From the IMG/VR virus record IMGVR_UViG_2916199983_000001: a stretch of 55,726 bases of DNA; one strand, given 5' to 3'. Under the pieces are notes generated by a model. It saw nothing but the letters and a program-made list of their open reading frames with translations, was not told the DNA's origin and searched no databases. The DNA comes from a virus. Taxonomy: Duplodnaviria; Heunggongvirae; Uroviricota; Caudoviricetes. The position numbers were made by a program, and so were the translations under genes. Below, one piece after another: positions 6,414 through 53,767 of this stretch. How positions within the stretch are numbered: the stretch's first letter is position 1; every line of letters begins with the position of its first letter.

Positions 6414-6487
6414 TGTTGGAAAACTCCTTTTTCCGTTAAATCAGCACCTTCATGGCGCTAATGGTAAGTATATACTTACTTATTTTA

Positions 6488-6871
6488 TTAATTCAACAAA
6501 TAGCCCGCAAATTCAATCGGGATACCCGCTTCAATTAATGAGCCTTCGTTTTTGGGATAAGTGATCGGCATAGACATTGGCCGAACCAACCGGAAGTAAA
6601 CGCCCTCTGACACGGTTTCTTCGACCGGGAACATATCCATGATCTTATTGGCTTTCGCCACCGCCTTTGTGATCGTCGCATTACGCACGATGACGGTGAA
6701 AGAGTCGTGATAAAAGCCTTTCAACTCATGGTCAATAGCGATCCCCGTATTGGGATTAACCAACAGAACACCGGACTTCACATTGGCTGGCATGTAGTGA
6801 CAGAAAATGTCAGCGCCGACTGTACCGATCTTCGCCTTCTGCATCAGGCTCGCAAATGCTTCAATAAACAC
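6488..6871 (-). CDS. Tail completion/terminator protein
   Basis: 127 aa, position immediately before major tail; GTG start with GAGG RBS. Confidence 0.6.
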   Translation of the reverse strand: MFIEAFASLMQKAKIGTVGADIFCHYMPANVKSGVLLVNPNTGIAIDHELKGFYHDSFTVIVRNATITKAVAKANKIMDMFPVEETVSEGVYFRLVRPMSMPITYPKNEGSLIEAGIPIEFAGYLLN

Positions 6872-6872
6872 A

Positions 6873-7346
6873 TCAACCTCTCGTAAAACCTGCTTTCCTT
6901 GCCGCTTCTGCTATCGTCTGAGTGAACTGTTTTTCACTGATCTGTACGGCTCTCTCAAGGAACAAAGGCCCAACTCGTGGCTTCACACCAGCGACTGGCG
7001 GGTTGGTGACGCTCTTCATGCGAGAGAGATAGCCGAGACGATACTTGCCCAACTCCATGTACTCCGCATAATCGCCAACCTCAACGCCCGGATGCCCTTC
7101 GCGTGGTTTGGCTCCAAATACCGATAACTCAATACGAAGCCCGGTATAACCTTCTTTGACCACTCTCGCGAAGATCGCGCTTTCGAGTGAGCCAGTCTCC
7201 AGCGGGGCCATTGCCCGCGCAAGACGCTCAACCAGACGCGCCAGCTTCTCCATGTCACGGATGAGATAACGCTTAAAGGCTTTCTGGCTGTTATTGAGCC
7301 TGTCGCCAGCACGCTTAAACTGATGCGCGTCGTACTTCAGACCCAT
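6873..7346 (-). CDS. Neck/tail-completion protein (HK97 gp10-like)
   Basis: A(P)LETGSLESAI, YAEYMELG and PLFLERAV motifs typical of HK97 gp10 family; start MGLKY at 7346. Confidence 0.7.
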   Translation of the reverse strand: MGLKYDAHQFKRAGDRLNNSQKAFKRYLIRDMEKLARLVERLARAMAPLETGSLESAIFARVVKEGYTGLRIELSVFGAKPREGHPGVEVGDYAEYMELGKYRLGYLSRMKSVTNPPVAGVKPRVGPLFLERAVQISEKQFTQTIAEAARKAGFTRG

Positions 7347-9046: not shown

Positions 9047-9089
9047 TCTTCTTCTCACTTAATGGGCGGCATCGCCGCCCATGTGTTGG

Positions 9090-10026: not shown

Positions 10027-10052
10027 AAAAAGGGTGGGCGTATAGCCCACCC
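10027..10052 (-). terminator. Intrinsic terminator after major capsid gene
   Basis: GGGTGGGC-5nt-GCCCACCC followed by TTTTT on minus strand. Confidence 0.8.
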
Positions 10053-10087
10053 CTAAATAGTAGATAATTACTTACCTACTATACTGA

Positions 10088-11908: not shown

Positions 11909-13483
11909 TCACTCGGTCTCTTGAGTAGATGAGTCCCCATTCCCTCGGGGTTGATCATGCCCGCTTTCTTGGGCTGTATCTTGATCATAAGTAAGTACTG
12001 ACTTATTTTCAAGGGTGTTAAGATCATTTTTTGGAGGAAATTTCAAGAGATCTTTTTGAAATTCCTTCTGCATCGCATCGGAAATGTTCGGGAAGACCTT
12101 CTCGATGAGCATTTCCATCTGATGACGACGAACAGAATCAGGCGCCTGAAGCAGCGACAGTTTCTCGGCAACGGCAAACTCGTCAGTCAGACCGCGAATG
12201 TCGAAACTTTCCGGGTATGCGATCAGAGAGTGGTCTTCATCCAGTTCGACACCCATCCATTTCGCTGCCAGTTGCATCATCTGGCGCTCTGCCCTTTCGA
12301 GACGTTCTGCTTTCGTCACCAGCAGACTGTTAACGCGCTGGAAGTCGTACATCTTCGCTGCGCCCGAAGAGTTATCGATGCCCTGTGCGTTATCCTGCTT
12401 GGTTCGCTCACCTGCCACGCCAACGGAATGGTAGATCTCGTTAATCACCGTCTTAATCGTGGTGATAATCATCTGGGCCTGTTTCGGGTCCGGAGACAGG
12501 TAGAATGGCTGATTACCGCTCTCAGAGTCGAAGGTGAAGACGCGTTTTGTCCCCATTTCGAGCACTTTGGTGTGGTTTTCATCGCCCGGCAGCAATGACT
12601 GAACCGGGATCGCCAGCTGGCTGAATGTCTGATCCTGAATAATCGCGTCAAGGTTCGACAGGTAGTTGGCCACGGCGCGATCAAGATAGGCGATATCGTC
12701 AATCAACGACGGGCTGAAATACGGAGACTCGCTTTCACCAATGCAATCCACCGGGAACACCGGCACCACGCCCAGATTATGCTGGCCGCTATCCTCCAGA
12801 ACGACTTTGGCCTGACGGCGACCGCTATTTCCGGAACCTTTCTTCACTTCTTCACGGAACAGATACCACTCGTTTTGCGTCCACAGACGGTAACGCTGGT
12901 ATTCCTGTCCGGTTGAAGTGAACGGATCTTCGTCGTCGCGCGCGATTTCAACAATTAGCGCCCACAACATATTGCCGTCTTCATCCCAGGCAACATCAAG
13001 CAGCTGCTGCGGCGAAATCCAGTATGCGTAGGCACGCGCATCATTTTTCTTCTCGTCTGCAACAGACTCAACATCGACGTTCATCGTGCTGTCCACGACA
13101 ACCCAGATACGGCCATAAATGGATGATTGCAGATCGATAGCCGCCATAAACGCATCGATGGAGGCGTTCTGGCGCGTGGCTCGCTTCCAGAAATTGCGGA
13201 TCTGCTCCGGTGCTTCATCAGTGTTGCGGTGAATGACCTCTTTGAAGAGGTATTTGTTGATGAGGTTTACCACTTCGCGCGTATGGTTGAAGCGATAAGC
13301 GCGTTCCAGGCGCTCTTTGAACTCCTGATCGCCCTCTTTGAAGTAACGGAAGATATTGTCGTTGAACCAGGCACGCCCGCCAGCGTAGGTGCTGGCGAGG
13401 AAGTCCCAATGTTCTTTTTTCTTCTCATATTCAGGGTGGCGTCGTGCCACAAGGTCTTTGATTTGCTTGTCAGTCAATTCCAT
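11909..13483 (-). CDS. Portal protein
   Basis: 524 aa directly after TerL; WDFLASTYAGG, SIYGRIWVVVD, VPVFPV and SSGAAKMYDF motifs. Confidence 0.88.
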   Translation of the reverse strand: MELTDKQIKDLVARRHPEYEKKKEHWDFLASTYAGGRAWFNDNIFRYFKEGDQEFKERLERAYRFNHTREVVNLINKYLFKEVIHRNTDEAPEQIRNFWKRATRQNASIDAFMAAIDLQSSIYGRIWVVVDSTMNVDVESVADEKKNDARAYAYWISPQQLLDVAWDEDGNMLWALIVEIARDDEDPFTSTGQEYQRYRLWTQNEWYLFREEVKKGSGNSGRRQAKVVLEDSGQHNLGVVPVFPVDCIGESESPYFSPSLIDDIAYLDRAVANYLSNLDAIIQDQTFSQLAIPVQSLLPGDENHTKVLEMGTKRVFTFDSESGNQPFYLSPDPKQAQMIITTIKTVINEIYHSVGVAGERTKQDNAQGIDNSSGAAKMYDFQRVNSLLVTKAERLERAERQMMQLAAKWMGVELDEDHSLIAYPESFDIRGLTDEFAVAEKLSLLQAPDSVRRHQMEMLIEKVFPNISDAMQKEFQKDLLKFPPKNDLNTLENKSVLTYDQDTAQESGHDQPRGNGDSSTQETE

Positions 13484-13516
13484 TTGCTTTTCCTTTCCGT
13501 TTAGGTAAGTACTTAC

Positions 13517-14773
13517 CTATCTAGATCCGCCAAGAATAACACGATTTTTCACCGGATACCTACGATGAACCGGATAACCCAACGCATCCGCACTGTGTTC
13601 GATGCCGCCAGTCTTATCCATATCGCGTGAGCCTGGCTTGTAGATCACCTTCTCCAGCGAGTCGATGAGGTGTTTGCACTTCGGATCGATGTACAACCGG
13701 GTTTCGCCCGAGGCACTCATCAACATGCGGTTCACTGCGTTAACACGGTCTGCGATCGGCGGGTGCTTCTTCGGATAATCGACTCGAAGGAAACCTTTTT
13801 CCTTGAAGATATCGACGTCCGATTCACCGCGTGCGTGCTGGCGATACGCACCTGCCGGGTCAGGGAAGATAGTGACCTGAGACTTCCAGCGCCAGAAACG
13901 ACGCTCCAGCTCATCACACACTTCAGCCGTGTTGGAAGAGAACAGCACAACCTCGTCCACGGCCCACAGCTCACCATTTGGCTGCGGCTGCAGGATGACC
14001 GATGACATAGGGTCGATGTTGAAGTCCTGACCAACCCAGATCGGCAGTTTCGGATTGAACTGGAGTGGCTTCACATGCACATTGCGGTCGAACGGGTAGT
14101 AAACGCGTCCGGACATGTTTTCGAAGCTGGCCAGGTATTCCTGCGCGAACGATTTAGGGTCCATATCGTTCTTCGCCGCTTCGATTTCCGCGCTCGGTAC
14201 GAACGGAGAATCGGCCGTAACGAACTGCCAGCTCTTCCACTGCCCTTTGCGTTGCAAATCTTTGTTCTGACCGATAGTCCACAGCTTGTGGAACTCGGAG
14301 AAGCCTTTTGGCGTACCGATGATCAGCGCACCGCCACGGGTAGAGGACAGTGTCGGACGCAGTACCTTGTACCAGGTGTCAGGCTTCATATCCTGAAATT
14401 CATCGAGCACCACGAAGTGCAGTGCCACACCACGAAGCGTATCGGGCTTATCCGCACCTTTCAGCGCGATTTCAGAGCCGTTCTTCAGCACAATGGTCAT
14501 CGTGGTGTCGTTTTTCTTACGAACCCATTTACGAGGCAGAACTTCCTGCAGGTCATCCCACAAGATCTGGCGAGCCATCTGGTAAGTCGGTGCGACGTAC
14601 CAGACACGTTGCTTTTTCTCTTTGGCTGCCGCGCGGATGATGGTGGAGATCGACAACCGGGATTTACCCCAGCGTCGACCCGCACACACCACTTTGAAAC
14701 GATGTGGTGACTGGAAGACTTGCATCTGCCCAGAATGCAGCTGTACGAGACTCAGAGACGACGGGATGGCCAT
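13517..14773 (-). CDS. terL: Terminase large subunit
   Basis: Walker A AGRRWGKS, LRG..LHFVVLDE Walker B, IGTPKG coupling motif, RNaseH-like GQDFN and HSADALGY. Confidence 0.95.
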   Translation of the reverse strand: MAIPSSLSLVQLHSGQMQVFQSPHRFKVVCAGRRWGKSRLSISTIIRAAAKEKKQRVWYVAPTYQMARQILWDDLQEVLPRKWVRKKNDTTMTIVLKNGSEIALKGADKPDTLRGVALHFVVLDEFQDMKPDTWYKVLRPTLSSTRGGALIIGTPKGFSEFHKLWTIGQNKDLQRKGQWKSWQFVTADSPFVPSAEIEAAKNDMDPKSFAQEYLASFENMSGRVYYPFDRNVHVKPLQFNPKLPIWVGQDFNIDPMSSVILQPQPNGELWAVDEVVLFSSNTAEVCDELERRFWRWKSQVTIFPDPAGAYRQHARGESDVDIFKEKGFLRVDYPKKHPPIADRVNAVNRMLMSASGETRLYIDPKCKHLIDSLEKVIYKPGSRDMDKTGGIEHSADALGYPVHRRYPVKNRVILGGSR

Positions 14774-15417: not shown

Positions 15418-15509
15418 AGATCCCTCTAAAACACTCAGAGCGCATCCTTGCGCTCCTAAACAACTTGTTTAATTCTGTGCCTAACCAATTTGTTTTCTGG
15501 GTGTTTAAA

Positions 15510-15610
15510 ACCGGGCTGGGGAGTATTCAGAGCCTGCTTCCGTATATATTTAATAAGTCACTTAGTATTTATATATACGGAAGCAGGCTCTCAAACTGGC
15601 TCCCAGACCG
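15510..15610. repeat. Long inverted-repeat element, copy 1
   Basis: Perfect 21-bp arms 15529-15549 and 15571-15591 around a 21-nt AT-rich core, plus imperfect outer arms. Confidence 0.9.
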
Positions 15611-15612: not shown

Positions 15613-15879
15613 TTACATCACCAGTAATTTGGCTCTGGCACGACCTAACGTGGTCAGTCCCAGCGTGCGACGGTGGTAGCCGGAATCACCGCGCTGGCGG
15701 CACATTCCTTTCTCCACCAGCCCCTTTTTCACCAGTGCGCGGATAGAGAACTGCATACTCTGTTTGGTCGTTTTGTACGGCAGCACTTCAAGCAGCTCGT
15801 CCAGATCGAGCAGATGCCCACGCTCATGGCCTAAATTGATGGTTTTGATGATGTCTTTTTGTTTGTCGGTCAACGTCAT
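15613..15879 (-). CDS. Small winged-helix DNA-binding protein
   Basis: LDLDELLEVL...SMQFSIRALVKKGLVEK...LGLTTLGR matches MarR-like wHTH pattern. Confidence 0.65.
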   Translation of the reverse strand: MTLTDKQKDIIKTINLGHERGHLLDLDELLEVLPYKTTKQSMQFSIRALVKKGLVEKGMCRQRGDSGYHRRTLGLTTLGRARAKLLVM

Positions 15880-17039: not shown

Positions 17040-17670
17040 ATTCCACCTTCACGCGTTCTTTGTAGTGCTTGGTAATCTGCATATCCGGGCGCAGCGCGTT
17101 CTTCAGGTCTTCGTGGGTCGTCGCCACCATTACCGTCGCACCAACCTTTCGAGCGGCACGCTGGAGGTTCGACGCCACAACCTGAGCGGTTACACGGTCG
17201 AGAACAGCGCCAAATTCGTCGGCTGCCCAGACTTTGGCGCCTGACTCGATCAGCTTGGCAATCTTGAGGCGGTATTTCTGGCCGTCAGACATCTCGGATG
17301 GCTTGCGCACAAAGAGATAGGCGTCATTCAATCCGGCCATAGACAGCAGCCCCAGCGCTTCGCTGGTGGTTTTGCCCAGCTGGTCGATGACGTTAACCTC
17401 ATTGTCGAAGGTAAAGTCATCGATGGAGGCTACAGAAAGCCCTTCATCCTTCATCTGGCGTTGCAGTTCGCGCAGCACAACGGATTTGCCGGAACCGGAT
17501 TGGCCGGTGATGTACACCACATCGCCCTGCTTCACTTCCAGCTCCAGATTGTCGTAAAGCGTCCACTCTTTTTCGTCCAGGCCAAGACCGAACGATTCGG
17601 CAATCTCCAGCGTGCGCGTGGTTTTGTTCACGCGGGTCTGAAACGATACATTGATGGTGTATTTGCTCAC
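17032..17670 (-). CDS. Soluble ABC-type ATPase (no membrane partner)
   Basis: Walker A GQSGSGKS, signature MSDGQ, Walker B AADEFG, H-loop ATTH. Confidence 0.88.
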   Translation of the reverse strand: MSKYTINVSFQTRVNKTTRTLEIAESFGLGLDEKEWTLYDNLELEVKQGDVVYITGQSGSGKSVVLRELQRQMKDEGLSVASIDDFTFDNEVNVIDQLGKTTSEALGLLSMAGLNDAYLFVRKPSEMSDGQKYRLKIAKLIESGAKVWAADEFGAVLDRVTAQVVASNLQRAARKVGATVMVATTHEDLKNALRPDMQITKHYKERVKVEYA

Positions 17671-18335
17671 GCAGCCAGCTCCCCTGAAGAAACTTTCTCC
17701 GCATATGCCACGAAAGCGTCTACCCCGCTCTCTCCCGTGATTTCTTCCATGTGGGCAAGCAAATCCCCAACCACAATGGCAGAGCCAGCAGGGAGCGTTT
17801 TAAAGCCCAATACGTCGATGACGCGGACTTCTTCAGAGGCTACTTCGCGACTGATCTCGGTGTGCTCTTCTTTCTGGCGTTCCGTCTCTTCGCCCAGATC
17901 GAGCACCAGAGAGCCGGTTTCCATCTCTTCGGTCATGCTGCCGACAAGCACGTTCAGCTCGCGCTCTTCAAAACCGAAGACCTCGACGTCGCCCAGCACC
18001 AGGGATTCCAGTTCCTGCTGCAATTTGATGGCGTCGTAGTCAATACTGGCCAGGCGGTTGTCTTCCAGACGCTTCGCCTTCACTTCTTCTTCGCTCAGAT
18101 CGTCGCGAACGATGACCGGCACACGCTCCAGACCAGCCAGAAGTGCCGCCTCGCGACGACCGTGGCCAGTAATGATGACGTCGTGCTTGTCGACCGTGAT
18201 CGGCTGGTCAAAACCGCGCTTTTTGATGGCGGCCGCCAGGTCGCGGATCTGCTGTTCGTCATGTTTTTTGGCGTTCATCTCATACGGGATGAGTTCTGCC
18301 GGGTTTCGATAGACGATTTCAAAGTTTTTGGTCAT
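17667..18335 (-). CDS. ParB/sulfiredoxin N-terminal domain protein
   Basis: LIPYEMNAKKH, GFDQPITV and IITGHGRREAA motifs; ATG at 18335 overlaps upstream TAA. Confidence 0.85.
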   Translation of the reverse strand: MTKNFEIVYRNPAELIPYEMNAKKHDEQQIRDLAAAIKKRGFDQPITVDKHDVIITGHGRREAALLAGLERVPVIVRDDLSEEEVKAKRLEDNRLASIDYDAIKLQQELESLVLGDVEVFGFEERELNVLVGSMTEEMETGSLVLDLGEETERQKEEHTEISREVASEEVRVIDVLGFKTLPAGSAIVVGDLLAHMEEITGESGVDAFVAYAEKVSSGELAA

Positions 18336-19015
18336 TACATACGCTCCTTGTAGTAGTCGACCAGCCACACCAGGGCTTCCCCGGCGTTCTCCATTTCGTT
18401 ACCGGTATTGATTCCCTGCTCTTTGATGATGGTTTTGATGGTGTCGGCGACGCGATCTGACGCATCAAACGTCACTTTGAAGCGCATCGTCTGGTGTTCA
18501 GCGCCGACTCGCTCGGTTTTCTCGCGTTTGTCCTCATCGACCGGCTCGTCATCGCCACGGGAGAGCGCTTCCAGCGCTTCAAGATCGATAACGGACGCTT
18601 TGGCGAGTGTTGCCGCCATTTCGTCGTCATACGGGGCGATATCGGACAACCGGTAGTCGATTTCAGACTGGATTTCTTCGATTAAGCGCTGCAAAGCGAC
18701 CTGATCGTCTTCGCCGTAGCGTTCGTTATCGACGAGAGACATCTGTTTGGCCACCAGGTCGTTAATTTTGCCCACGGAGATGACGGGAACCGTTGAAATG
18801 CCCTGCTCCATCGCGGCACGCCAGCGGTGTTCGCCACCGAGGATCTCAAAAATGCCCCCGTCCAGCTCCCGCGCCAGAATTGGCTTAAAAAAGCCCAATT
18901 TTTCGATCGAGCCTTTCAGTTTTTCGAAGTTTTGCGCCCCAACGGAGTTGGTATTCCAGGGATTCGGACGCAGGTTCGCGACTTCCACCTGCAGAATCGT
19001 AATTTTCACATCCAT
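18335..19015 (-). CDS. ParB/sulfiredoxin N-terminal domain protein
   Basis: LRPNPWN, GFFKPIL and ILGGEHRWRAA motifs. Confidence 0.85.
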   Translation of the reverse strand: MDVKITILQVEVANLRPNPWNTNSVGAQNFEKLKGSIEKLGFFKPILARELDGGIFEILGGEHRWRAAMEQGISTVPVISVGKINDLVAKQMSLVDNERYGEDDQVALQRLIEEIQSEIDYRLSDIAPYDDEMAATLAKASVIDLEALEALSRGDDEPVDEDKREKTERVGAEHQTMRFKVTFDASDRVADTIKTIIKEQGINTGNEMENAGEALVWLVDYYKERM

Positions 19016-19097
19016 AATTCTGATACAATCCATTGTATAAGTACTTACTTACTATAATAGCCAATTACCATACAAAAGGCACGAAGGAAAGAGGTTT

Positions 19098-20996: not shown

Positions 20997-21419
20997 ATGA
21001 AACACGTTCTACTTCCACTGATTACCATCCCCGTTTTACTCCTGAGTGCATGTTCATCCCGCCCTGTGTCTGTAGCTGATGCAAAACCGGCTCCGCAGGC
21101 CAGAGTTTTCAAATACCAGACGTCTGCACCAACCACGCTGGTGGTTATGAGGGACAAAGGTATGATAGGTGCGGGCTGTGACGCATCCATCTTCATCAAT
21201 GGTGAGACGGTTGCGAAACTTGAGACCGGTGAAAAAGCGACGTTCCATCTTGATGCCGGGCAATGGATTGTTGGCGCTTCACTGGAAGGCGCCGGGCTGT
21301 GCGCACTGAACCCTGCTCGTCAGGAACGCGAGACCTTCACCAAAGCTGGCGAGACGAAAGTCTTCCGGGTGTTCACCAGCAACGCAGGTGACATCGATAT
21401 CCTACCAACGACACTGTGA
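20997..21419 (+). CDS. Lipoprotein
   Basis: MKH + hydrophobic stretch + lipobox LLSAC. Confidence 0.8.
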   Translation: MKHVLLPLITIPVLLLSACSSRPVSVADAKPAPQARVFKYQTSAPTTLVVMRDKGMIGAGCDASIFINGETVAKLETGEKATFHLDAGQWIVGASLEGAGLCALNPARQERETFTKAGETKVFRVFTSNAGDIDILPTTL

Positions 21420-21423
21420 CGAT

Positions 21424-21951
21424 ATGACGAATATTACTGACATCACCTACGGGATTCCTGCAGAAGTCTGGCCGCGCGATTACACCAACGTGGAGAAGGC
21501 GCTGATGTTCTGGCGTAAGTCTCTCATTCCTGTAAGGGTCACGATGGAAGATGGTCAGGTGTTCTGCATGTACGTTCAGGGTCTCATGTCGTCGCGCAAC
21601 AAAGTCGATCTTTGCCCTGCCCCGTTCGACAAAGAAAATCGTATAAGGCTCCCACTTGAGCGAATCAGTACGATTGAATCAGGTGTGACAGAAAGCATTG
21701 CGCACGATTTCACGGGTCGGACAACGGTACACCCAGACTATGTGGACAATCGGCCATCTCGCCGTGATTTCTTCAAAATTTGTCGCCAGGCTCATGAGAT
21801 GCAGAAGTCTATAAGGGTCTACATGGCGGATGGCCGTGAAATTGAGGGTGTGTCTTCAGGCGTTGACGCTTGCCAGGTCACGCTCAACATGGGGGACGGT
21901 CGGAAGACAGTCGTCATGTTCGATTGGGTCGAACGGATTTTACCGTTTTAA
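21424..21951 (+). CDS. Hypothetical protein with two Sm-like/SH3-like beta-barrel repeats
   Basis: Internal repeat VRVTMEDGQVF...LERISTIE / IRVYMADGREI...VERILPF. Confidence 0.55.
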   Translation: MTNITDITYGIPAEVWPRDYTNVEKALMFWRKSLIPVRVTMEDGQVFCMYVQGLMSSRNKVDLCPAPFDKENRIRLPLERISTIESGVTESIAHDFTGRTTVHPDYVDNRPSRRDFFKICRQAHEMQKSIRVYMADGREIEGVSSGVDACQVTLNMGDGRKTVVMFDWVERILPF

Positions 21952-25316: not shown

Positions 25317-25444
25317 TTTTGGTCTCCCTGTTGTTGACCTGATTATATTATTGTCGTAGGTAAGCACTTACAATACAGGTAAGCAAAAAAGCCCCGAAGG
25401 ATGGACGGGGCTGTCGTAGGGACGACTAATCGCTTTTGCACATG

Positions 25445-31437: not shown

Positions 31438-31495
31438 GTGTTCACCTCTGATAAAGTGGCTCTATTCTTACATAAATTAGGTAAGTATTTACCTA

Positions 31496-34830: not shown

Positions 34831-34862
34831 AAAATGATAGGTAAATACTTACCTATCATTTT
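34831..34862. promoter_or_regulatory. Longest copy of the 18-bp palindrome family (32 bp)
   Basis: AAAATGATAGGTAA-ATAC-TTACCTATCATTTT, perfect 14-bp arms. Confidence 0.85.
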
Positions 34863-35100
34863 GTGACAAAAATCCAATGTCACGCTTGTGAGGCATATCG
34901 GCTGCGGAGTAGGCGGCGATCAGAGCAGGCCGTTCAATAGATCTGCTTTGAGAGAGGATTGGACCAAGCCCTAGATAACGAGAGAGCACGGTGCTAATAC
35001 CCAAGACGACAACAGACGAGTTCATGGCAACATTTTGGAAGGTATCTTCGTATCATGATGTGGTTAAATAGACACAATTTAACCCAATGGAATTTTAGCC

Positions 35101-35703
35101 ATGCTAACCTTCTGGCACGAATATTCAGATCTCATCTCCGCATTTTTAGCGGCTCTTTTAGGTGGCTGTTTCACGATGAAAGGAGTGACAGCTCAGGTGA
35201 AACAGCAGGCAAAACAGCAGGCAACAGCGGCCAGAGAGAAGCGTATAACAACGCTATTGGGTGTCAGAGAGGAAATAGACTCACTGATTAAGTTGTATAA
35301 GGCCAGAATTGAAGAGGAAATCAAACAATACGACCGGAACTCACCGTTCGATAACATTTTCCCCATTACTCAAAACTACTTCACTTTCTATGAAGCTAAC
35401 TCGGCATCTCTACCTGAAGTTCATAGAGAAACACTATCAAAAATTGTGGCTTTTTATACAAGCGCAAGAAGCCTAATTGATTCCTATCGCGGTAATAATG
35501 CCCTTATCGAAAGGCTGGACTCCACGCAGGTTGCCAGTGACATTACTGGCAACAAAGAGCATCTTGCACACCTGAAAAGATACACAATCCTAGCCACAGA
35601 GTACGGCCGCGGATTAATGATGATTCATGAAGAGGTCATGCTGCGCTATAAACAGGTTATAGAAGCCATCGATGGTGAAATCTCGCAGCTACAATGCAGT
35701 TAG
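35101..35703 (+). CDS. Hypothetical protein with N-terminal TM helix (foreign insert)
   Basis: 200 aa, AT-richer codons, flanked by short palindromes. Confidence 0.8.
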   Translation: MLTFWHEYSDLISAFLAALLGGCFTMKGVTAQVKQQAKQQATAAREKRITTLLGVREEIDSLIKLYKARIEEEIKQYDRNSPFDNIFPITQNYFTFYEANSASLPEVHRETLSKIVAFYTSARSLIDSYRGNNALIERLDSTQVASDITGNKEHLAHLKRYTILATEYGRGLMMIHEEVMLRYKQVIEAIDGEISQLQCS

Positions 35704-35714
35704 TACTACAGCCT

Positions 35715-35780
35715 GTCCGCTTATGGCGCGTAGCGGACTAGCTCATTGGGCAGAAGGTCCGCTCTGAGCGAAAAGCGGAC
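35715..35780. repeat. Tandem GTCCGCT-N10-AGCGGAC palindromes
   Basis: Exact copies at 35715-35738 and 35757-35780. Confidence 0.85.
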
Positions 35781-35829
35781 GCCCGCATAGCGTAAACAGG
35801 CGTCTGATATTTTGATATGGATTGATGAC

Positions 35830-36180
35830 TTAACCCCTTCCCCGCTTCGTCAATGACTTTCTCGTCATTATCTTTGGTAAATGATCCTTTTGCCTTTCCG
35901 GTAGAATACTCAGCATTATTTCTGAAGAGCGGCAAAGACGAGTGCCTTGCCATGAGTTCACCATAATTTCATCTGCGCCCGTGCGGCGAACCAGATCCCT
36001 GAGCCCGTCACGGACGACCTCCGGTTTGCCCCATACGGATTCACGCAGCTGATAATATTTTGCGGTCAGTTCATCAGCGGTATCACTAGTCATTGCCCGT
36101 GAGCGGGTCATGGGGGCCATAACGACGCGGTTTACCAGGTCAGTATCACCGGTCTGAAACGGGGTAAATAATTTTTCCAT
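35830..36180 (-). pseudogene. Chimeric remnant: OYE/NemA-type alkene reductase N-terminus fused to LLM-class flavin oxidoreductase C-terminus
   Basis: LFTPF...LVNRVVMAPMTRSRA (OYE start, strong RBS) joined near 36049 to GKPEVVRDGLRDLVRRTGADEIMV (LLM end). Confidence 0.75.
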
Positions 36181-36455
36181 TTTTATCTCCTTTGCTGGAG
36201 GAAATATGATGGTCTCAGCTACGGAATAAAAAAACAGTAGTCTGTTCCGAACTGAGTAGACATAATTTCTACATTTAGTGTTCTCCTGGTATTAAACCGA
36301 AATATTTGATTGTAGGCGATGTCTTACGTAGAGATAAAGCCTGCTGCAAAAGTGATGAAGACTCAGTATGTTCTCTTCTAATACAAAGCAGACGCCCATT
36401 CTCATGCAGACGCTTTGTTCTTGTCTCGCTAGCAACCAAATCGCTTGCTCCACAA

Positions 36456-37143
36456 CTATGATTGCTTATTAGCGTTTTCATCAAAAAACAAATCAAAATA
36501 AATTGATTTTATGAATTCTCTATCGGAGTCTATATGGTCAGCGCGATTTGCATGCTCTAATGTTTCAATTGCCAGAGTGTGCGCGGCATCAGCAAACATC
36601 TCAGGCCAACCCGTACTCAGCATAGATAGCCCTTTGAGCACTCTTATCTGAATCTCTCTCATACTGGCACCATCGCGTGCGACAGGTGAGAAAAAGTCTT
36701 CCAGGAGATCGTTGTTCTGAAGTGGCGCAACGTGTACTGAAGGATAGGTCACTTCAATTTCATGAGACTTATTCTGCGCGTAAGCAGAAAGTATACGAAC
36801 ACCTCTGCCAATGACATCGATTGCGGTTCCAGGATCGTTCACTGCGGGTGAAAGGGCTCTGCAGGCTATTTCGGCCATGACGCTAAGACAAAATCGGGGA
36901 TCCTGAGCAAATGAACGCACATCCGAGACAATGATCGTCTCAAGTAAATCGGCGCAGATTGATGACTCCTGGCCCTGACTCAGGTACAAAGCTGGCATGG
37001 ACGGATGAATGAAACTGCCTGGTTGCGCCACAAGGTATACATGACGAGGATCATTGGCCAGCAGCTTGCTGAGTTTCTCCATATCAATATATTCAACATA
37101 GCCAATCTTCTTCGGATAAACTGCAACCGTTCCTTTCGGCTGT
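36456..37143 (-). pseudogene. DUF2254-family membrane protein, 5' part removed at IS end
   Basis: RSFAQDPRF and RALSPAVNDPGTAID motifs; reading frame runs into IS terminal repeat. Confidence 0.75.
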
Positions 37144-37182
37144 TGGTAATACCCCCATTTTTGACGGAGGTGATAAGTAGAA

Positions 37183-38010
37183 TCAGGCCATGCGTTGAAT
37201 ATGTTGCATCGGCGTGAAACCATTCAACGCCATATTTGGTCGTTCATGATTATAAAACCATTGCCACTGCGTGGCATAGTTCTGCAATTCATCCAGTGAT
37301 GTAAACAGGTGTTGCCCCAGCCAATCATAGCGTACCGTACGGTTGTAACGCTCAATATAGGCATTTTGCTGCGGATTGCCGGGCTGAATAAAGTTAATCT
37401 GGATGCCCCTGTCATTAGCCCATGATATCAACGTGTTACTGGTATATTCTGGTCCATTATCACATCGTATTGCTATGGGTTTACCTTTCCATTCAATGAG
37501 CTGTTCCAGCGTTCGCACAACTCGGTTTGCCGGCAGAGAAAAATCGACCTCTATTGCCAGTGCCTCACGGTTAAAATCATCGATAATATTCAGCAGACGG
37601 ACTGAGCGACCATCTGATAATTGATCGTGCATGAAGTCCATCGACCAGCATTCATTACTGTTTTTAGGTACCGTCAGCGGTTCGGGCTTATCCCGTTTCA
37701 GTCGTTTTTTCGGCTTTATTCGCATGTTCAGCGATAACTCGCAGTAAATTCGGTACACCCTTTTGTGGTTGAACTTAAAGCCTTTTACGTTACGCAGATA
37801 CAAAAAGCACAGGCCAAATCCCCAGTTGCGCTGATTGCCAGTGATGCGGAGCAACCAGTCGGCAATAATGACATTTTCTTCATTCAACTGAGGCTGATAG
37901 CGATAGCAACTTTCGCTGACAGCAAACAACTGGCAGGCAAAATGTATGCTGACGCTTCGACTCCTGACTGCGTCCTGTGCCATCTGCTTTCGATGCGATG
38001 GCTTCACCAC
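37183..38010 (-). CDS. IS3 transposase OrfB (DDE)
   Basis: [33 protein letters not shown] motifs. Confidence 0.93.
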
Positions 38011-38270
38011 TTTTTTGCCATAGCCTCCTGAATGATCTCGGCTTTTAGTCGTTCTTCGGCATACATCTTTTTAAGGCGGCGGTTTTCATCTTCCAGCTCT
38101 TTCAGACGGGCCATCATGGAGGCATCCATCCCGCCAAAGCGTGAGCGCCACTTATAGAAACTGGCGCTACTCATGCCATGCTCGCGGCACAATTCAGCCA
38201 CCGGCGTTCCTGCTTCTGCTTGCTTGAGGATGGCCATGATCTGGCTGTCGGTAAAACGTGATTTTTTCAT
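38004..38270 (-). CDS. IS3 transposase OrfA (HTH)
   Basis: [11 protein letters not shown]...[16 protein letters not shown]; -1 slip site at 38010-38016 with upstream GGAGG. Confidence 0.93.
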
Positions 38271-38390
38271 AGAAATCTCCCGGTTCAGATTACGAGAAAA
38301 TTCTACTTATGAACACACCGGCTTTTCGGGGGGATTACCGGTAGATTTTATCACTGGCGATCTGCGTTTTAAATGGTAAGTACTTACCGA

Positions 38391-38621
38391 TTATTTCGAT
38401 TGATTATTTTCTCGACCATGAAGCTGGACGTTCAGGGCAAACACCTCATTGATGAGTTCCCCTAACAGCTGCTCGACCAGCTCTTTGTGCTCACCTGAGT
38501 GAAGGCACTTGAGCGACCATTCGTAGAGACTGAAAGCCTTATCGCGATCTTTCATCATGTCGCGTACTTTGGTCAGAAAATCGCTCTCAACGAGCGCTAC
38601 GACGTTCGTCGGGTATACCAT
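38391..38621 (-). CDS. Hypothetical protein
   Basis: 76 aa with AAGGA RBS. Confidence 0.7.
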   Translation of the reverse strand: MVYPTNVVALVESDFLTKVRDMMKDRDKAFSLYEWSLKCLHSGEHKELVEQLLGELINEVFALNVQLHGRENNQSK

Positions 38622-39417: not shown

Positions 39418-39602
39418 TACTTTGTTCTGATAGGTAAACACTTACCTATTTTTTCATTTAATCCAACGGATAGCAAACAAAGAAGAACGCGCCAGATCCG
39501 CAAACGGGAAGCTCTCTGGCGCGTTTTATCGATGCTGGGTATGCGATTAGCTTACCCAGCGTCCTAAAGCTCTCAGGGGGCTTTAGATCGGGTAGGGGAA
39601 CA

Positions 39603-42268: not shown

Positions 42269-42744
42269 TACGACCTTCTGTATACGATCTGCAAAAAGCC
42301 AGACTCATCCTCATTTGCACGTTGGGTATAAGCCGTTTCGACTGGTACGAACCCTAAAGAACGCATCATTGGCGCCGGGAAGAACGCATCCGCGCCCGGC
42401 ACATCCACGCCAATATGCGACAGCCAGATCTCTTCTACGTGTGGCATAAAGAGCGAGTAAATCTGCCCGCCACCAATCACCCAGACCGGATCTGGTAGTC
42501 TCAAAACGTCATCGATGCCAGCGGGGTAGAACCCATTGGGGATATAGCCACGAGAGCGCGTCAAAACGAGGTTATGGCGCTCTGGCAGCGGGCGTTTAAG
42601 ACTTTCCATCGTCTTACGTCCCATCACGACAGTGGCGTTTTTGGTGAGTTGTTTGAACAGTTTCAGATCGGTCGGGCAACGCCAGGGAAGTTCGTTGCCA
42701 ATGCCGATTTCATAGTTGCGGCCGACAGCTGCAATCATCTTCAT
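42268..42744 (-). CDS. folA: Dihydrofolate reductase
   Basis: IAAV...IG..NELPW...DLKLFK, VVMGRKT.ES, PLPERHNLVLTR, VIGGGQIY. Confidence 0.93.
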   Translation of the reverse strand: MKMIAAVGRNYEIGIGNELPWRCPTDLKLFKQLTKNATVVMGRKTMESLKRPLPERHNLVLTRSRGYIPNGFYPAGIDDVLRLPDPVWVIGGGQIYSLFMPHVEEIWLSHIGVDVPGADAFFPAPMMRSLGFVPVETAYTQRANEDESGFLQIVYRRS

Positions 42745-44259: not shown

Positions 44260-44347
44260 AATCAACCTCACACAAGATAAGTAAGTACATACACATTATT
44301 TTATACAAGTTTATCTGTCAGAAGTGTGTAAGGCTAGGAGGGGAGTA

Positions 44348-44377: not shown

Positions 44378-44448
44378 CAATGAGCAATTAAGAACTTGGA
44401 CAATAAAACACGCCAAGGCAATATATAATGATAAGTAGATACTTACAA

Positions 44449-45318
44449 TTATTTTTTTACCATCTCGTAAAGAGATGATGATTTCGCCTTCTCAACAAAG
44501 CGAGTCAGATCCACATCGCTGTAGGTCGGGGATTTGAGGATCTTGCCATCAGAAATTCTGAAGCCAATCATCATGTCAGTCCCTTCAGCATGGCGGAAGC
44601 CCAGGTCTTCCTTGTCGTATTTGCAATTCTCTACCGCCACACGACGCTCTTCGGCGTCAGCCGGCCACAGCTTGGTCATGTTGGAGCGATGGATTTCTGC
44701 CACCAGCTCAACAATATCGATACCGAGAAAATCAGCCAGGCGGTAGGTCATCATGCAGGCAACGTAGATTTTGTTCATCACGCGGCGCAGCTCCTGCACC
44801 AATTCGGAATCGCTTATCGGCTTCGCTTCTAGTTTGTCAGCCAGCGCATTCAGCATTAATGCAGCTTCTTTTGCTTCTTCAAACGGGATGGCCATATCGT
44901 CAAAGACCGTGTTGCCCGGAACCATGATGGTGTGGATGAAGCGATCAACACTCTGCTCTTGGGTGTAGTAGCTCATGCCCGTAGAGATTCCGCCTTTGAT
45001 GGCCACCATTGTGCCGACGCCCACGTAAAGGAAGTCAGCCATCGCGTCCAGCAGTGCCGTCATATCCCCATTTTTGGCTGCCGGGATGCCCTCGGTAACA
45101 GCTTCTTCGTGGATCAGCTTGGCACGCAGACGCAGTAATGCCGGATCTGGAATGGCACGGCGTGGGTGCTGAAACAGTGTGTGGAACTGGTCAACCATCA
45201 GGTAGATGCTTTCCGTTGCCTTGCCAAAACCAGGATTCAACTCGTAAGGCTCTGGCTTAAATCCCACGAGTTTGTCTGCGGCAAGTTTCAGATGATCGGT
45301 CAGTTTCGTAAATTTCAT
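44449..45318 (-). CDS. MazG-like all-alpha NTP pyrophosphohydrolase (dUTPase-like)
   Basis: LIHEEAVTE, LDAMADFLYV, EIHRSNMTK, GKILKSP.Y motifs. Confidence 0.8.
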   Translation of the reverse strand: MKFTKLTDHLKLAADKLVGFKPEPYELNPGFGKATESIYLMVDQFHTLFQHPRRAIPDPALLRLRAKLIHEEAVTEGIPAAKNGDMTALLDAMADFLYVGVGTMVAIKGGISTGMSYYTQEQSVDRFIHTIMVPGNTVFDDMAIPFEEAKEAALMLNALADKLEAKPISDSELVQELRRVMNKIYVACMMTYRLADFLGIDIVELVAEIHRSNMTKLWPADAEERRVAVENCKYDKEDLGFRHAEGTDMMIGFRISDGKILKSPTYSDVDLTRFVEKAKSSSLYEMVKK

Positions 45319-48978: not shown

Positions 48979-49005
48979 AAAAAAGGCCACTAAATATAGT
49001 GGCCT
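48979..49005 (-). terminator. Intrinsic terminator upstream of nrdA
   Basis: AGGCCACTA-4nt-TAGTGGCCT followed by a T-tract on minus strand. Confidence 0.8.
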
Positions 49006-49043
49006 CATGTTAATAGATAAGCACTTACCTATCAATTACCGAC

Positions 49044-50371: not shown

Positions 50372-52277
50372 AGCTGCGACCCTCTTTGACTTCGACTGTG
50401 ATGGTTTCCCGGAACCACGATTTCATCTCTTTGTGGGAAATGATCATCACTGTGCCGCGTTCACGCGCTTTGGCTTCCAGAATCCCCATGAGACGCTCCA
50501 GACCGGCAGTGTCGAGCGCGTCGTCAATTTCATCCCCGATAAACAGCTCGATATTCTTACTGGCGCGACTGGCAACCAGATCCTGCAAAGCAAGAGAGCA
50601 CGCAATGCGTACCTTACGCTTCTCGCCACCAGACAACGTCTGGAAGGATTTGCTGGAGCCTGTTTTGGTTACGCTGATATTGAATTTGTCGCGATACTCG
50701 CCTTTCTTTGTTGTCTCCATTGTCGACCATTCGGCAACGATATTGCCGTCCGACAGCGTGTTGAGATACTCCGCAGTCCTGATGTTCAGGAAAGGCGTAA
50801 CAGAAGTCAGGATGTGTGAACGCACGCCAGCTGGGGAGTAAACCTGGCGAGCTTTCTCCAGCAACAGAGCCTGTTCCTGAATGCTTTTTAACTCTTTTTT
50901 AAGTACTGCATGATTAGATTTATTGGCAGCCAGGTTGTCTTCATGGCGCTTAATGACAGCCAGAAATGGGTTTACCTCTGCCATGATGCGATTCACGTCA
51001 GTACGCGCCCGCGCCACCATCGCTTCGACGGCCACAACTTCACGTTCTCGATGACGCAGCGCACTTAGCTCATTGGTCAGGCGTTCGATTCTGGCGATGA
51101 TTTCTGAGACGTCGGGTGTGGCTGCGACCAGTGCAGACTCGATGCCGAGCGCTTTCTCAAGACGAGCTTTGTGTTGAGCCACTGCCGCTGCTGATGCCTG
51201 CGCCTGGCCGATCTCATTACGCGCTTGTTCAATGAAACTCTCCTTCACGGTGGACAAATCTTCTTCGCAGTAGGGCTTTCCGCACGTAACACAAGGCGCC
51301 CCGACCTTTGTGCTGACCTCTTCTGCTTTGGTTTTAAACGAACGAGCACGGTTCATGGACTCGTTCTGTGCCGCTTCTGAAGTGCGGATGCTTGAGCGGA
51401 TCTCCGTAATCGCACCGCGCACCTTCAGCAGTTTGGCGTCATGCTCTTCTTTGGAGGCCAGCTTGCTGCGTTCGCCAGCAATCGCGTTTTCCGTATCCCG
51501 GATCTGTTCCGGCAGCGAGCGAATTTCCATCACGACTTCAGACAGTGTTACCTCCGCGCCAGCCAAATCGAATCGAGCCTTGTCCAGACGTTCGCCGCGA
51601 TCGCGCTCCCAGCTATCAGAGGACGCTTTGGCCGCCTCAATCTCTGACTGTGCGGTCTCGATAAGCGTGAGACAGGCGTCCATTTTGGATTTGGTAACAT
51701 CCATACGTGCGGCAGCTGCGTTGGCTCGCTCGCGAGCAATTGCATAGGCTCGCGTTAACCGGTCGACGCCAGCGGCTTCTTCAACGATGGTTTTGAGGTT
51801 CTTGTCGGACATACCCGGCAGATCTGGCATTGCTTCCTGACTGGCGTAGATGGACGCCATGAACACCTCTTTCGATGCACCAATCAGGCGTTCAACGAAC
51901 TCCTGCGTCAGTGTGTCTTTGCCTTTGGTCATATCACCGTCTTCGCCACGGACGATCAGCCGGTTCTTGAACTCTTTGTGTTTGCGGTGGCGAATGATGG
52001 CGTAACGCTTTCCTTCATCCTCAACAGTCACCATCACGCGACAGTTTTTCTCGTGGCCTGTAGACAACACGTCGTCACCTTTAACGCCATGCGCAGTTTC
52101 GCCATACAGACACCACATCAGGCTGTTCATCAAAGTCGATTTGCCCGCGCCATTGCTGGCAGCAGAGGAGTCGCCACTGTTAACACCCTGAATGAGCACC
52201 AGACCGCGTTGGTCTAACTCAACTTCGGCGCTGGCTAACGCCATGAAGTTCTCAACCTGGAGCTTTAGAAATTTCAT
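50361..52277 (-). CDS. SbcC/Rad50/gp46-like SMC ATPase
   Basis: NGAGKS Walker A, coiled coil with CVTC zinc hook, LSGGE signature, IGDEIDDALD, IISH. Confidence 0.92.
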   Translation of the reverse strand: MKFLKLQVENFMALASAEVELDQRGLVLIQGVNSGDSSAASNGAGKSTLMNSLMWCLYGETAHGVKGDDVLSTGHEKNCRVMVTVEDEGKRYAIIRHRKHKEFKNRLIVRGEDGDMTKGKDTLTQEFVERLIGASKEVFMASIYASQEAMPDLPGMSDKNLKTIVEEAAGVDRLTRAYAIARERANAAAARMDVTKSKMDACLTLIETAQSEIEAAKASSDSWERDRGERLDKARFDLAGAEVTLSEVVMEIRSLPEQIRDTENAIAGERSKLASKEEHDAKLLKVRGAITEIRSSIRTSEAAQNESMNRARSFKTKAEEVSTKVGAPCVTCGKPYCEEDLSTVKESFIEQARNEIGQAQASAAAVAQHKARLEKALGIESALVAATPDVSEIIARIERLTNELSALRHREREVVAVEAMVARARTDVNRIMAEVNPFLAVIKRHEDNLAANKSNHAVLKKELKSIQEQALLLEKARQVYSPAGVRSHILTSVTPFLNIRTAEYLNTLSDGNIVAEWSTMETTKKGEYRDKFNISVTKTGSSKSFQTLSGGEKRKVRIACSLALQDLVASRASKNIELFIGDEIDDALDTAGLERLMGILEAKARERGTVMIISHKEMKSWFRETITVEVKEGRSYVV

Positions 52278-52510
52278 ACAATGCCTCTAACTTTTTGATT
52301 CAAATGCTGGCCTTTTCGCAGTTGAAACTCCGTGTGGGCTGGGAAAGATCTGCGTTTCAGTACGCCTTGTTTGCTCAGTCTTCCCAGATAAAACGCCACA
52401 GGGTTTCCGTCAGGTGGGTAGGGCTTGTGGAACATCACCGTCTGGCCTCGTTCAAGTCTTTTCATCGTGGAGATGAAGTCCCGAAAGCTCCCAGAATGGC
52501 TCGTACTCAC
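52274..52510 (-). CDS. Hypothetical basic protein
   Basis: GTGA overlap with SbcD-like stop and overlap with SbcC-like start. Confidence 0.65.
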   Translation of the reverse strand: MSTSHSGSFRDFISTMKRLERGQTVMFHKPYPPDGNPVAFYLGRLSKQGVLKRRSFPAHTEFQLRKGQHLNQKVRGIV

Positions 52511-53592
52511 ACTGCCTCCGCACTCTCCGCTTCGGTCAGGATCTCCTGACACAGCATGTCCAGCTTGCTCAGGTCGAAGCCGCCGTCAGTGTCGTGAACG
52601 ATCTTGCAGTACGCCGCGACGGACTCGCCCAGGCTGTCTATTTTGCTGGTCTCCGCAGTACTGGCAGTGCCTTCCATCATCGATGCCTTGCGGATGAAGT
52701 TGCAGACGACACCCTTAGCGCCCATTGTTTTCAGGACGTTCTGGAGTTTGATGCCTTCTTCATCGCTCTCAACAACGGCACGAAAGCGCACGTAGTTACC
52801 GCGAATTTGGTCGTCTTCCACATCGTCCTCAAGGTTGACGAACTTGGGTGCGGAGGTTTCGTGGTGGGTGAATGTGCCGTCAGGGTTGACGATCATGAAG
52901 CCAGCCAGAGAGCCAACATCGCCCCAATTCTGGTGCGTCAGCGCCCCGATGCTAACCACTCCAGGCAGCACTTCTTTGTGGTTGTGGTAGTGTCCGGACA
53001 GCAACAAACGGAAGCCGATATCTTTCAGTTCCTGTGCGTCGATGCCGACATCAGGCATGGTGGGGATCGCTTTGTTGATCGAGGTATGCACAACGACATC
53101 GTGGTTGTCGCCATCCAGCCCGGAACGCAGTGTTTTGAGGTCGCTGATAAGCTCTGCGTGGTTATTGCGCCAGCTAATCAGGTGGACGGTAACGTCGCCC
53201 ATTTTGATGGAGTGAGAGCGTTTGCCGCAGACGATTTCCACACCGATTGAGCGCAGAGAGGCCGCTGCATTGGCGCTGTATACGGAATCGTTGGTTTCGA
53301 GGTCGTGGTTGCCGGCCAGCATGACCACTTCGAGGCCCAACTCTTTGATGATCCACTCGTAAGTTTCGGTCACGAAATGCAGGACGGAAGGCGATATAGC
53401 ACCACGAACATGGAAAGTATCACCAGCCACCAGCATGTGCTTGCAGCCCGCAGCTTTCATGGCTTTGGCAGCTTCTTTCGTGGCGTCCAGTTGGATCTCC
53501 AGTCGAGAGTTCAGCCCGTCAGCGTTTGTTGTCGCAAAAGCATCCCAACGATGATAATGGGGATCTGATATCACCCCGTATGGCAATGTCAT
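52507..53592 (-). CDS. SbcD/Mre11/gp47-like metallophosphoesterase nuclease
   Basis: SDPH, AGDTFH, GNHD, SGHYH motifs. Confidence 0.92.
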   Translation of the reverse strand: MTLPYGVISDPHYHRWDAFATTNADGLNSRLEIQLDATKEAAKAMKAAGCKHMLVAGDTFHVRGAISPSVLHFVTETYEWIIKELGLEVVMLAGNHDLETNDSVYSANAAASLRSIGVEIVCGKRSHSIKMGDVTVHLISWRNNHAELISDLKTLRSGLDGDNHDVVVHTSINKAIPTMPDVGIDAQELKDIGFRLLLSGHYHNHKEVLPGVVSIGALTHQNWGDVGSLAGFMIVNPDGTFTHHETSAPKFVNLEDDVEDDQIRGNYVRFRAVVESDEEGIKLQNVLKTMGAKGVVCNFIRKASMMEGTASTAETSKIDSLGESVAAYCKIVHDTDGGFDLSKLDMLCQEILTEAESAEAV

Positions 53593-53767
53593 GTGTCTTT
53601 TCCTTTGTGGTTATTTTGATACAGATGTTAAGCGTGTTTGAGAGGCGAACAACCCAGACAACACGGCACAGAAGAAAATCTACAGGCACATGATTATGAC
53701 AAGATATATAAGTAAATACCTACTTATTTTTATGGTGGTGACAATATCTCAACCGTATGGGGGCTTA

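Follow-up and report, generated by a model that had tools for sequence, protein, structure and literature searches.

A Dispersed 18-bp Palindrome in SSU5-Type Phage-Plasmids as the Probable Operator of a Single Dimeric Protein

The Window and Its Palindrome Copies

The window analysed here, the whole 55,726-nucleotide stretch of the tailed-phage record IMGVR_UViG_2916199983_000001, is ~98% identical to Salmonella phage SSU5 (NC_018843) and ~80% identical to the Escherichia coli phage-plasmid Cyrano and Klebsiella relatives. It runs antiparallel to the SSU5 record, its minus strand holds most genes, and its gene table was made by mapping SSU5 proteins onto it. An 18-bp palindrome recurs along the window. 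A reading made earlier from the letters alone (the sequence-only reading) had listed 14 copies and compared them with the late promoters of phage P1, which depend on the Lpa protein. All 14 coordinates carry the palindrome, at an enrichment far beyond chance, and the sites are intergenic and conserved at orthologous gene junctions. Very probably, in our view, they are instances of a single DNA operator that one dimeric protein binds; that they work as P1 late promoters do is improbable. The copies of the putative operator are as follows.

6465..6482, TAAGTATATACTTACTTA, 5 nt past the stop codon that ends the SSU5_011 homologue, with the Ig-domain major-tail gene 51 nt on
10061..10078, 9 nt past the major capsid stop, with the Ig-protein gene start 47 nt off; a GC hairpin and T-run terminator (stem ~10036-10052, minus strand) lies between the motif and the Ig-protein gene
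11988..12005, in the 3'-terminal part of the portal gene, with the SSU5_004 homologue 101 nt on; the motif is the spacer of a promoter-like TTGAAA-17-TATGAT
13502..13519, perfect consensus; its terminal TAG is the terL stop, and 18 nt (ribosome-binding site) separate it from the portal ATG
19034..19051, in a divergent gap, directly adjoining the ATG of the minus-strand ParB_N gene that comes first, with the plus-strand helicase gene 46 nt off; TATAAT begins 1 nt past the motif
25357..25374, in the gene direction after a terminator-like hairpin (~25390-25412) and 40 nt before the SSU5_114 homologue
31478..31495, right behind the stop of a large DNA methyltransferase gene, with the next gene 40 nt on
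34838..34855, within a 32-nt near-perfect palindrome; one border of a variable cassette slot; RNA-seq contigs break here
38373..38390, right behind the SSU5_089 homologue; the other border of the cassette slot; SSU5 homology stops 33 nt off
39431..39448, at the start of a Dam-family methyltransferase gene; RNA-seq contigs break here
44278..44295, 18 nt ahead of the thyA start
44432..44449, weakest of the 14 (symmetrised-matrix score 16.5), right behind the stop of a MazG-like gene
49014..49031, 12 nt past the stop of a RuvC-like gene, with nrdA 47 nt off; a canonical terminator (hairpin 48985-49004 plus T-run, gene strand) lies between the motif and nrdA; RNA-seq contigs break here
53709..53726, 116 nt ahead of an sbcD-like gene

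The strict pattern has four matches in the window against 0.00 expected, and nine sites match with up to two mismatches against 0.21 expected. A weight matrix built from the 14 sites, which is partly circular, scores them at 19.6 to 29.0, the best other position reaching ~12. With a symmetrised matrix, the sites score 16.5 to 28.8, and the best score in each of 50 shuffles of the 103-kb SSU5 sequence averaged 14.0 with a maximum of 20.0; the two weakest sites, 44432 (16.5) and 25357 (19.2), are thus individually within reach of shuffled sequence. Twelve of the 14 lie in the non-coding ~12.5% of the window (binomial P ~1e-9), and the two exceptions are at a gene end (11988, in the portal gene) and across an annotated GTG start (39431).

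The Klebsiella element pJN2-26 has 17 sites at up to two mismatches against a control count of one. In SSU5-type replicons (~105 kb; Salmonella, E. coli, and Klebsiella), orthologous gene junctions hold 17-29 copies of the motif; above the matrix threshold there are 25 in the whole of SSU5 and 21 in Cyrano. The perfect 18-mer occurs at 31 loci in IMG/VR, every one of them (31/31) SSU5-like. Few of the SSU5 sites fall in its plasmid-maintenance and early-regulator regions. Literature searches with the motif string, for SSU5 promoters, and for SlmA together with phage-plasmids yielded no description of the motif.

Anatomy and Gene Context

The consensus, TARGTAAGT followed without a spacer by ACTTACYTA, is a perfect 18-bp palindrome. 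Weaker symmetry extends 4 bases further on each side, giving 26 bp of the form A-W-R-A, core, T-Y-A-T (43 sites in gene orientation). The last TA of the core and the next four bases form TATYAT, a -10-like hexamer, and across the same 43 sites its mirror image lies upstream about equally often; each end of the 26-bp palindrome is therefore an outward-facing TATYAT, and the hexamer is part of the palindrome. The positional table of the 43 sites contains no TTGACA-like signal at the right spacing, i.e., no conserved -35; TTGAAA is found at two SSU5 sites, one of which has a window counterpart (11988).

Several features that the sequence-only reading had described were seen again in altered form. 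It had noted at six sites a -10-like hexamer starting 1 nt past the motif; the hexamers are present, but in that register A2 and T6 occur at just 5 of the 14 sites and no TAnnnT signal emerges across the sites, whereas a TAnnnT hexamer overlapping the last TA of the motif is found at 8 of 14. It had also taken the spacer to be oriented, a claim that fails when whole half-sites are compared (13 vs 15 mismatches; by sign test, p = 1.0 for the window, and for Cyrano p = 0.24). That the sites stand just upstream of genes is true, although 15 of the 22 SSU5 counterparts are nearer the preceding stop codon than the next start; nine window sites come no more than 15 nt after a preceding stop. The following start codon is 0 to 131 nt off among window sites and as far as 733 nt away in SSU5. 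At 13502 and 44278, the 18 nt between motif and start have room for a ribosome-binding site only. The motif is followed by a terminator at 10061 and 49014 and preceded by one at 25357. Because distances to stops and starts, terminators, and abutment on ribosome-binding sites all vary, one fixed promoter geometry cannot describe all copies.

Whether the palindrome acts in DNA or RNA was assessed by comparing its two halves. Over 46 sites, within-site pairing averaged 6.48 Watson-Crick pairs, compared with 6.55 for shuffled partner halves (p = 0.75); with G-U pairs allowed, the values were 7.24 and 7.33. Orthologous SSU5 and Cyrano sites differ by one-sided changes with no compensation. The halves are thus under no pairing constraint, as would be expected of a dimeric protein reading two independent half-sites and not of an RNA or DNA hairpin; an RNA hairpin or intrinsic terminator was rejected on this half-site pairing test.

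Two RNA-seq assemblies (X1 and X2) contain the element, and their contigs break within ~60 nt of sites 34838, 39431, 44278/44432, and 49014; four of four breaks in X1 and four of six in X2 fall at motif sites. The breaks fit transcription-unit boundaries, but start, end, or strand is not readable from them. Contig depths in X1 and X2 are flat whole-contig means inflated by a strain-specific insert containing an insertion sequence (IS), and the sizes of depth steps were not used. The raw-read RNA runs X21 and X24 do not contain the element.

Two of the sites listed above, 34838 and 38373, bound a variable cassette slot (window 34922-38339). SSU5 homology breaks off 33 nt beyond site 38373 and is regained 66 nt short of site 34838; the slot is 1.08 kb in SSU5, where it holds an RNase H gene, and 3.4 kb in the window. 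The window version contains an IS3-family element (orfA 38004-38270 and orfB 37183-38010), a truncated DUF2254 membrane-protein gene (36456-37223), and an Oxidored_FMN fragment (35830-36180). A third version, in the strain behind the RNA runs, begins at the same boundary (38340).

P1-Type Boxes and Lpa

The sequence-only reading had given the P1 box correctly, as the annotated P1 record (AF234172) confirms. A box of that type, AAGTNACTT, occurs once in the window against 0.75 expected and was dropped as the window motif. A tblastn search with P1 Lpa against the window, SSU5, and Cyrano gave a best E of 0.7, i.e., no Lpa homologue, and P1 Lpa compared with the small winged-helix protein described below gave E = 8 in BLASTP and a probability of 0.1% in hhalign. 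P1 has 9 nt between the centre of its box and the start of the -10; here the distance is 7.5 nt for the best hexamer (motif positions 17-22) and 10.5 nt in the register proposed earlier, and neither is present at all sites. The sites also precede nrdA, thyA, the Dam-family methylase gene, and sbcD in the window, and SSB and cobS in SSU5. With a different box spacing, no Lpa homologue found, a -10 register both inconsistent and mirrored, and non-late genes included, the proposed P1 late-promoter architecture is not supported. What survives of the idea that a phage regulator coordinates structural and nucleotide-metabolism genes is that one palindrome is common to both gene classes, which implies one regulator; the P1-type architecture attached to that idea does not.

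The single P1-type box of the window (AAGTGACTT, gene strand, 15555-15563) is at the centre of an inverted repeat at 15526-15594, with 24-nt arms 96% complementary and 21 nt apart, in the interval that separates terS from the winged-helix gene. In Rhizobium phage RHEph10, the corresponding position is taken by a comparable long repeat. The window repeat may be a packaging or regulatory structure.

The Rhizobium Phage and a Second Palindrome Family

Relatives with portal proteins ~50% identical infect Rhizobium, Pseudomonas, Xanthomonas, and Stenotrophomonas. Among them, RHEph10 (NC_034248) is syntenic (portal 51% identical) and has a palindrome of its own, ARTCAATATTGAYT, extended to GTC...GAC, with 26 copies at up to two mismatches against one in the control. 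Examples are as follows.

112701-112714, RHEph10 palindrome
13523-13536, RHEph10 palindrome
38557-38570, RHEph10 palindrome
106199-106212, RHEph10 palindrome

The RHEph10 copies occupy the terL/portal, minor tail M/L, and cobT/cobS junctions and the divergent gap between helicase and ParB, and they also precede nrd, dnaB, and terS. As with the SSU5 sites, a hairpin often comes next; the half-sites combine freely, with AGTAAAT joined to ATTGATT recurring. As an unrelated palindrome stands at the same junctions, the layout is ancestral, the recognised sequence alone having changed. RHEph10 also encodes a sigma-70-family protein (gp045), whereas SSU5-type elements are without one; a phage sigma factor was discarded as an explanation, none being encoded by SSU5 or Cyrano. 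An inverted repeat tried in the Pseudomonas phage nickie proved to be single-copy.

SSU5-type elements contain a second palindrome family, AAACAANTTGTTT, with 16 window sites at up to two mismatches against 2.7 expected and, at up to one mismatch, 20 sites in SSU5 and 18 in Cyrano; the Rhizobium phage has none.

15458-46588, second palindrome family, e.g., at 15458, 15483, 24322, 25769, 27746, 29315, 29744, 30060, 33194, 33918, and 46576

This family is concentrated in the small-gene regulatory region and lies ~25-50 nt ahead of several start codons. There is therefore one palindrome family in RHEph10 and two in the SSU5-type elements, and the RHEph10 sites cover junctions that the two SSU5 families divide between them.

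Candidate Binding Proteins

The host nucleoid-occlusion factor SlmA recognises the SlmA-binding site (SBS) GTGAGTACTCAC, in which G1, T2, A4, and G5 are required, position 3 may be any purine (dissociation constant, Kd, 50 nM with G and 60 nM with A), and position 6 any pyrimidine (Tonthat 2011, PMC3020112). An SBS over a promoter represses a reporter, and SlmA activates one Vibrio promoter from 167 bp away (PMC5519180). Pooled half-sites of the phage palindrome (n = 92) have G at 83%, T at 100%, A at 91%, A at 78%, G at 72%, and Y at 99%, so that the SBS sequence G-T-R-A-G-Y is matched at all six positions. Motif positions 1-3 (T 95%, A 90%, R 93%) further match the TAA/TTA flanks of the SBS consensus oligonucleotide AAGTAAGTGAGCGCTCACTTACGT (PMC4423959). 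The chance that an arbitrary palindrome would fit SBS at nine of nine positions, flanks included, was estimated at ~3e-5 before allowing for the many comparable host factors. In the nearest genome, 19 matches are on the ~100-kb phage-plasmid contig and seven on the ~4.8-Mb remainder, a ~130-fold difference in density, and the seven chromosomal matches look like ordinary SBS. SBS-like sites number zero in RHEph10, zero in nickie, and one in the Xanthomonas phage JGB6. A six-frame search for TetR_N (PF00440) found none in SSU5 or Cyrano, which disposed of an element-encoded TetR or SlmA copy there, and 14 in the nearest host genome. No link between SlmA and SSU5-type phage-plasmids was found in the searched literature, where the single paper that mentions both deals with Listeria mobile elements.

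The best phage-encoded candidate is a small winged-helix protein.

15616..15879, minus strand, candidate binder: gene for an 88-amino acid basic winged-helix protein (isoelectric point, pI, 10.1), homologue of SSU5_130, immediately upstream of terS

A Pfam search with the protein gave no match. Its AlphaFold2 (AF2) model (pLDDT 86.9) has winged helix-turn-helix topology, and the best structural matches are DNA-binding domains of the MarR family, including MarR-operator and FabT-DNA complexes, at TM 0.71-0.76. The recognition-helix region is invariant across the Salmonella, E. coli, and Klebsiella homologues. RHEph10 gp077 is a syntenic 78-amino acid counterpart with the same sequence pattern and different residues in the aligned predicted helix region; a pairwise BLASTP comparison gave E = 0.008 at 25% identity over 47 residues. 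At the BLAST level, no small regulator is common to SSU5 and RHEph10, the shared proteins being structural and replication proteins, two ParB_N proteins, and ABC ATPases. Two copies of the second palindrome family and none of the 18-bp family adjoin the winged-helix gene, so the winged-helix protein may serve the second family; as a candidate it is not assignable to either one.

Other proteins of the element were set aside. The two adjacent ParB_N proteins (17667-19033, minus strand) had drawn attention through the motif copy that adjoins the first of their genes and through the fold of its product, which is similar to the N-terminal part of Noc, ParB, and KorB. However, both proteins are acidic (pI 4.6), and the segment after the ParB_N domain, which aligns with the ParB helix-turn-helix, is also acidic and has no basic DNA-binding helix. 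The pair heads a conserved operon that also encodes two ABC-type ATPases, extends as far as terS, and shows 38-55% identity in the Rhizobium phage. The 'transcriptional repressor' of SSU5 belongs to the FljA family (PF03614, phase-1 flagellin repressor; E = 1e-96); the target of this family is flagellin expression, and nothing connects the protein with the motif. Its window copy, the SSU5_121 homologue at 21505-21948 within 21388-21951 (plus strand), belongs to the helicase operon that starts at motif copy 19034; judged from this family membership, the element may affect host flagellin expression. CYRAN_45, the putative master repressor of the Cyrano paper, is unlikely to be a universal binder, as no counterpart was seen among SSU5 annotations, though no homology search was run. 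A motif-like CTGGTAAGTGCTTACCGA with a perfect 12-bp core is present in Cyrano (OV696614) at 42604-42621, 30 nt upstream of CYRAN_45. The CYRAN_45 gene adjoins an integrase gene, which was likewise not seen among those annotations.

Interpretation

The explanation that we prefer, at a probability of roughly 45% for the whole, is a shared operator used as a silencer or boundary, with SlmA the proposed occupant and the winged-helix protein the main alternative. The copies occupy short gaps at virion/lysis and DNA-metabolism junctions, where the bound protein would sit over weak promoters (TATYAT with no -35) and in the path of read-through transcription. It would then be a global silencer or boundary element for lytic genes in the plasmid state, its occupant being host SlmA or, as the main alternative, the phage winged-helix protein (15616-15879). 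Taken separately, a silencer or boundary role is somewhat favoured over that of an activator site; occupation by host SlmA, suggested by the half-site match, is plausible at somewhat below even odds; and a phage protein is a serious contender for the same place, likewise short of an even chance.

Several observations weigh against this explanation. At SBS position 3, 91% of half-sites have A and 1% have G, whereas SlmA accepts both and the chromosomal consensus is G. The SlmA-critical positions G1 and G5 are among the less conserved here. Chromosomal SBS have been reported to lie outside promoters (PMC3020112). An old layout with a changed sequence speaks for a phage factor that has co-evolved with its sites. 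A small winged-helix protein is encoded at syntenic positions in the two lineages, and its predicted recognition-helix region differs between them. Finally, the RNA evidence consists of contig breaks only.

Some of these same observations make a phage regulator, with the MarR-like 88-amino acid protein as the best candidate, a real if doubtful alternative; the sites would be its regulon, and their likeness to SBS incidental or secondary. Such a system would resemble the P1 C1 operators or the L5 stoperators if repressing, and an Lpa-like system if activating. It would account for the different palindrome at orthologous RHEph10 junctions, for a winged-helix protein at the same place in both lineages with different aligned recognition-helix residues, for the joint invariance of that helix region and the motif across the Salmonella, E. 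coli, and Klebsiella elements, and for a near-invariant A where SlmA takes G also; the window protein, in addition, folds confidently in AF2. It leaves the nine-of-nine agreement with SlmA specificity to coincidence, and of the two families in SSU5-type elements, it is the second that adjoins the winged-helix gene.

Alternatively, the sites might form a SlmA-site array selected for cell biology and not transcription, loading the nucleoid-occlusion factor and holding back division over unsegregated copies or during lytic replication; they would be intergenic only because an 18-bp AT-rich palindrome is hard to encode within genes. This is unlikely, even though the SBS match with its density excess over the chromosome, the mixed local contexts (overlap with stop codons, abutment on ribosome-binding sites, positions before and after terminators), and the lack of an encoded TetR-family protein would all suit it. 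A pure need for density would not predict the scarcity of SSU5 sites in the plasmid-maintenance and early-regulator regions, and the coincidence of RNA contig breaks with sites and the different palindrome at the same junctions of the Rhizobium phage also argue against it.

A scenario combining these elements, also unlikely as a whole, has SlmA co-opted as a global operator protein: the ~25 sites, of high affinity for SlmA, would silence or insulate lytic units at low copy number and be titrated free on replication after induction, coupling late expression to replication, while SlmA-loaded DNA would also restrain the FtsZ ring over plasmid copies not yet segregated or in lytic growth. The SBS-like sites would have replaced part of an ancestral regulon over which a phage winged-helix protein would still have control by way of the second palindrome family.

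Less likely again is that the motif stands in for the -35 of activator-dependent promoters, centred at about -20 to -22, with a phage activator switching on all units upon induction. In its favour are the lack of a consistent -35, the TAnnnT overlapping the motif end at 8 of 14 window sites and the TATAAT after 19034, a 5' leader of ~22-120 nt that would remain at ~14 of 22 SSU5 sites, the resemblance of the core AAGTACTT to the P1 box AAGTNACTT, and a winged-helix gene by terS as lpa is by pacA. But the spacing of the P1 box differs by one base and such boxes are at chance level, an Lpa homologue was not found, and the -10-like hexamer has its mirror image upstream with similar frequency; at five or six SSU5 sites, a start site and a ribosome-binding site would not both fit, terminators stand directly downstream at two window sites, and early-type genes (nrdA, thyA, dam, SSB, and sbcD) are served too.

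That the palindrome works in RNA, as a hairpin terminating, stabilising, or marking transcripts for RNase III between genes, is scarcely credible: sites right behind stop codons, an A-rich upstream and T-containing downstream flank, and coincident contig breaks would fit, but the arms pair no better than shuffled partners, many of the AU-rich 9-bp stems would contain two or three mismatches, orthologous sites are altered on one side without compensation, the asymmetric AGTAAAT/ATTGATT combination recurs in RHEph10, and separate GC-rich terminators exist where termination is needed.

Clinical Enterobacterales commonly harbour SSU5-type phage-plasmids, among them the pHCM2 and Cyrano type and many plasmids of Klebsiella and E. 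coli, some with resistance genes. For the question of how ~100 kb of phage genes is kept silent in the plasmid state, a site with 17-29 copies in each replicon offers the most obvious way in. If the occupant is SlmA, a mobile element would be using a cell-division factor as a regulator, or interfering with division by DNA only; if it is the small winged-helix protein, the master regulon of the SSU5-type family would be defined.

Comparison with Known Systems

The phage sites and chromosomal SBS share the palindromic GTRAGY half-site, the TAA/TTA flanks, and tens of dispersed copies. The phage consensus GTAAGTACTTAC corresponds to the G3A variant, which SlmA binds in vitro at a Kd of ~60 nM (Tonthat 2011, PMC3020112). 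Unlike chromosomal SBS, the phage sites are ~130-fold denser and confined to intergenic gaps, with A near-invariant at position 3, and both the outer TA and the 26-bp extension are strongly conserved.

P1 late promoters (AF234172) consist of AAGT[T/G]ACTT, 4 nt, and then TAnnAT, i.e., an odd-spaced 9-mer with a central base, whereas the core here is the even-spaced 8-bp AAGTACTT inside an 18-bp palindrome, without that central base. In both, a -35 is absent, and several operons are preceded by a short palindrome that has AAGT/ACTT at its core and lies near a -10-like hexamer; in both, too, a small regulator gene adjoins the small terminase gene (lpa by pacA, and the winged-helix gene by terS). 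This last parallel is the one that survives, and it can serve as a lead. The use of the sites differs: in P1 they are confined to late genes and depend on Lpa, whereas the window sites also serve early-type genes.

The P1 C1 operators (AF234172) and the stoperators bound by gp71 of mycobacteriophage L5 are likewise found in tens of copies over large temperate-phage genomes, in short intergenic gaps of early and late operons, and many do not stand at obvious promoters, a likeness that fits lysogenic silencing. The window palindrome has these features of dispersed repressor operators, being present in many intergenic copies in both early and late operons. Sites of the C1 and L5 kinds are asymmetric, those of L5 being also oriented with transcription, whereas the window site is a symmetric palindrome in which half-site asymmetry is not significant. 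A palindrome of 13-16 bp dispersed over a replicon and read by one global factor is known from the KorB OB sites of RK2 and from Noc/ParB. The element resembles these systems in encoding two ParB_N proteins, with a motif copy abutting the first gene and structures 8qa8, 7nfu, and 6t1f among the fold matches; it differs from them in that its ParB_N proteins are acidic, lack the basic DNA-binding helix, and would be poor sequence-specific binders.

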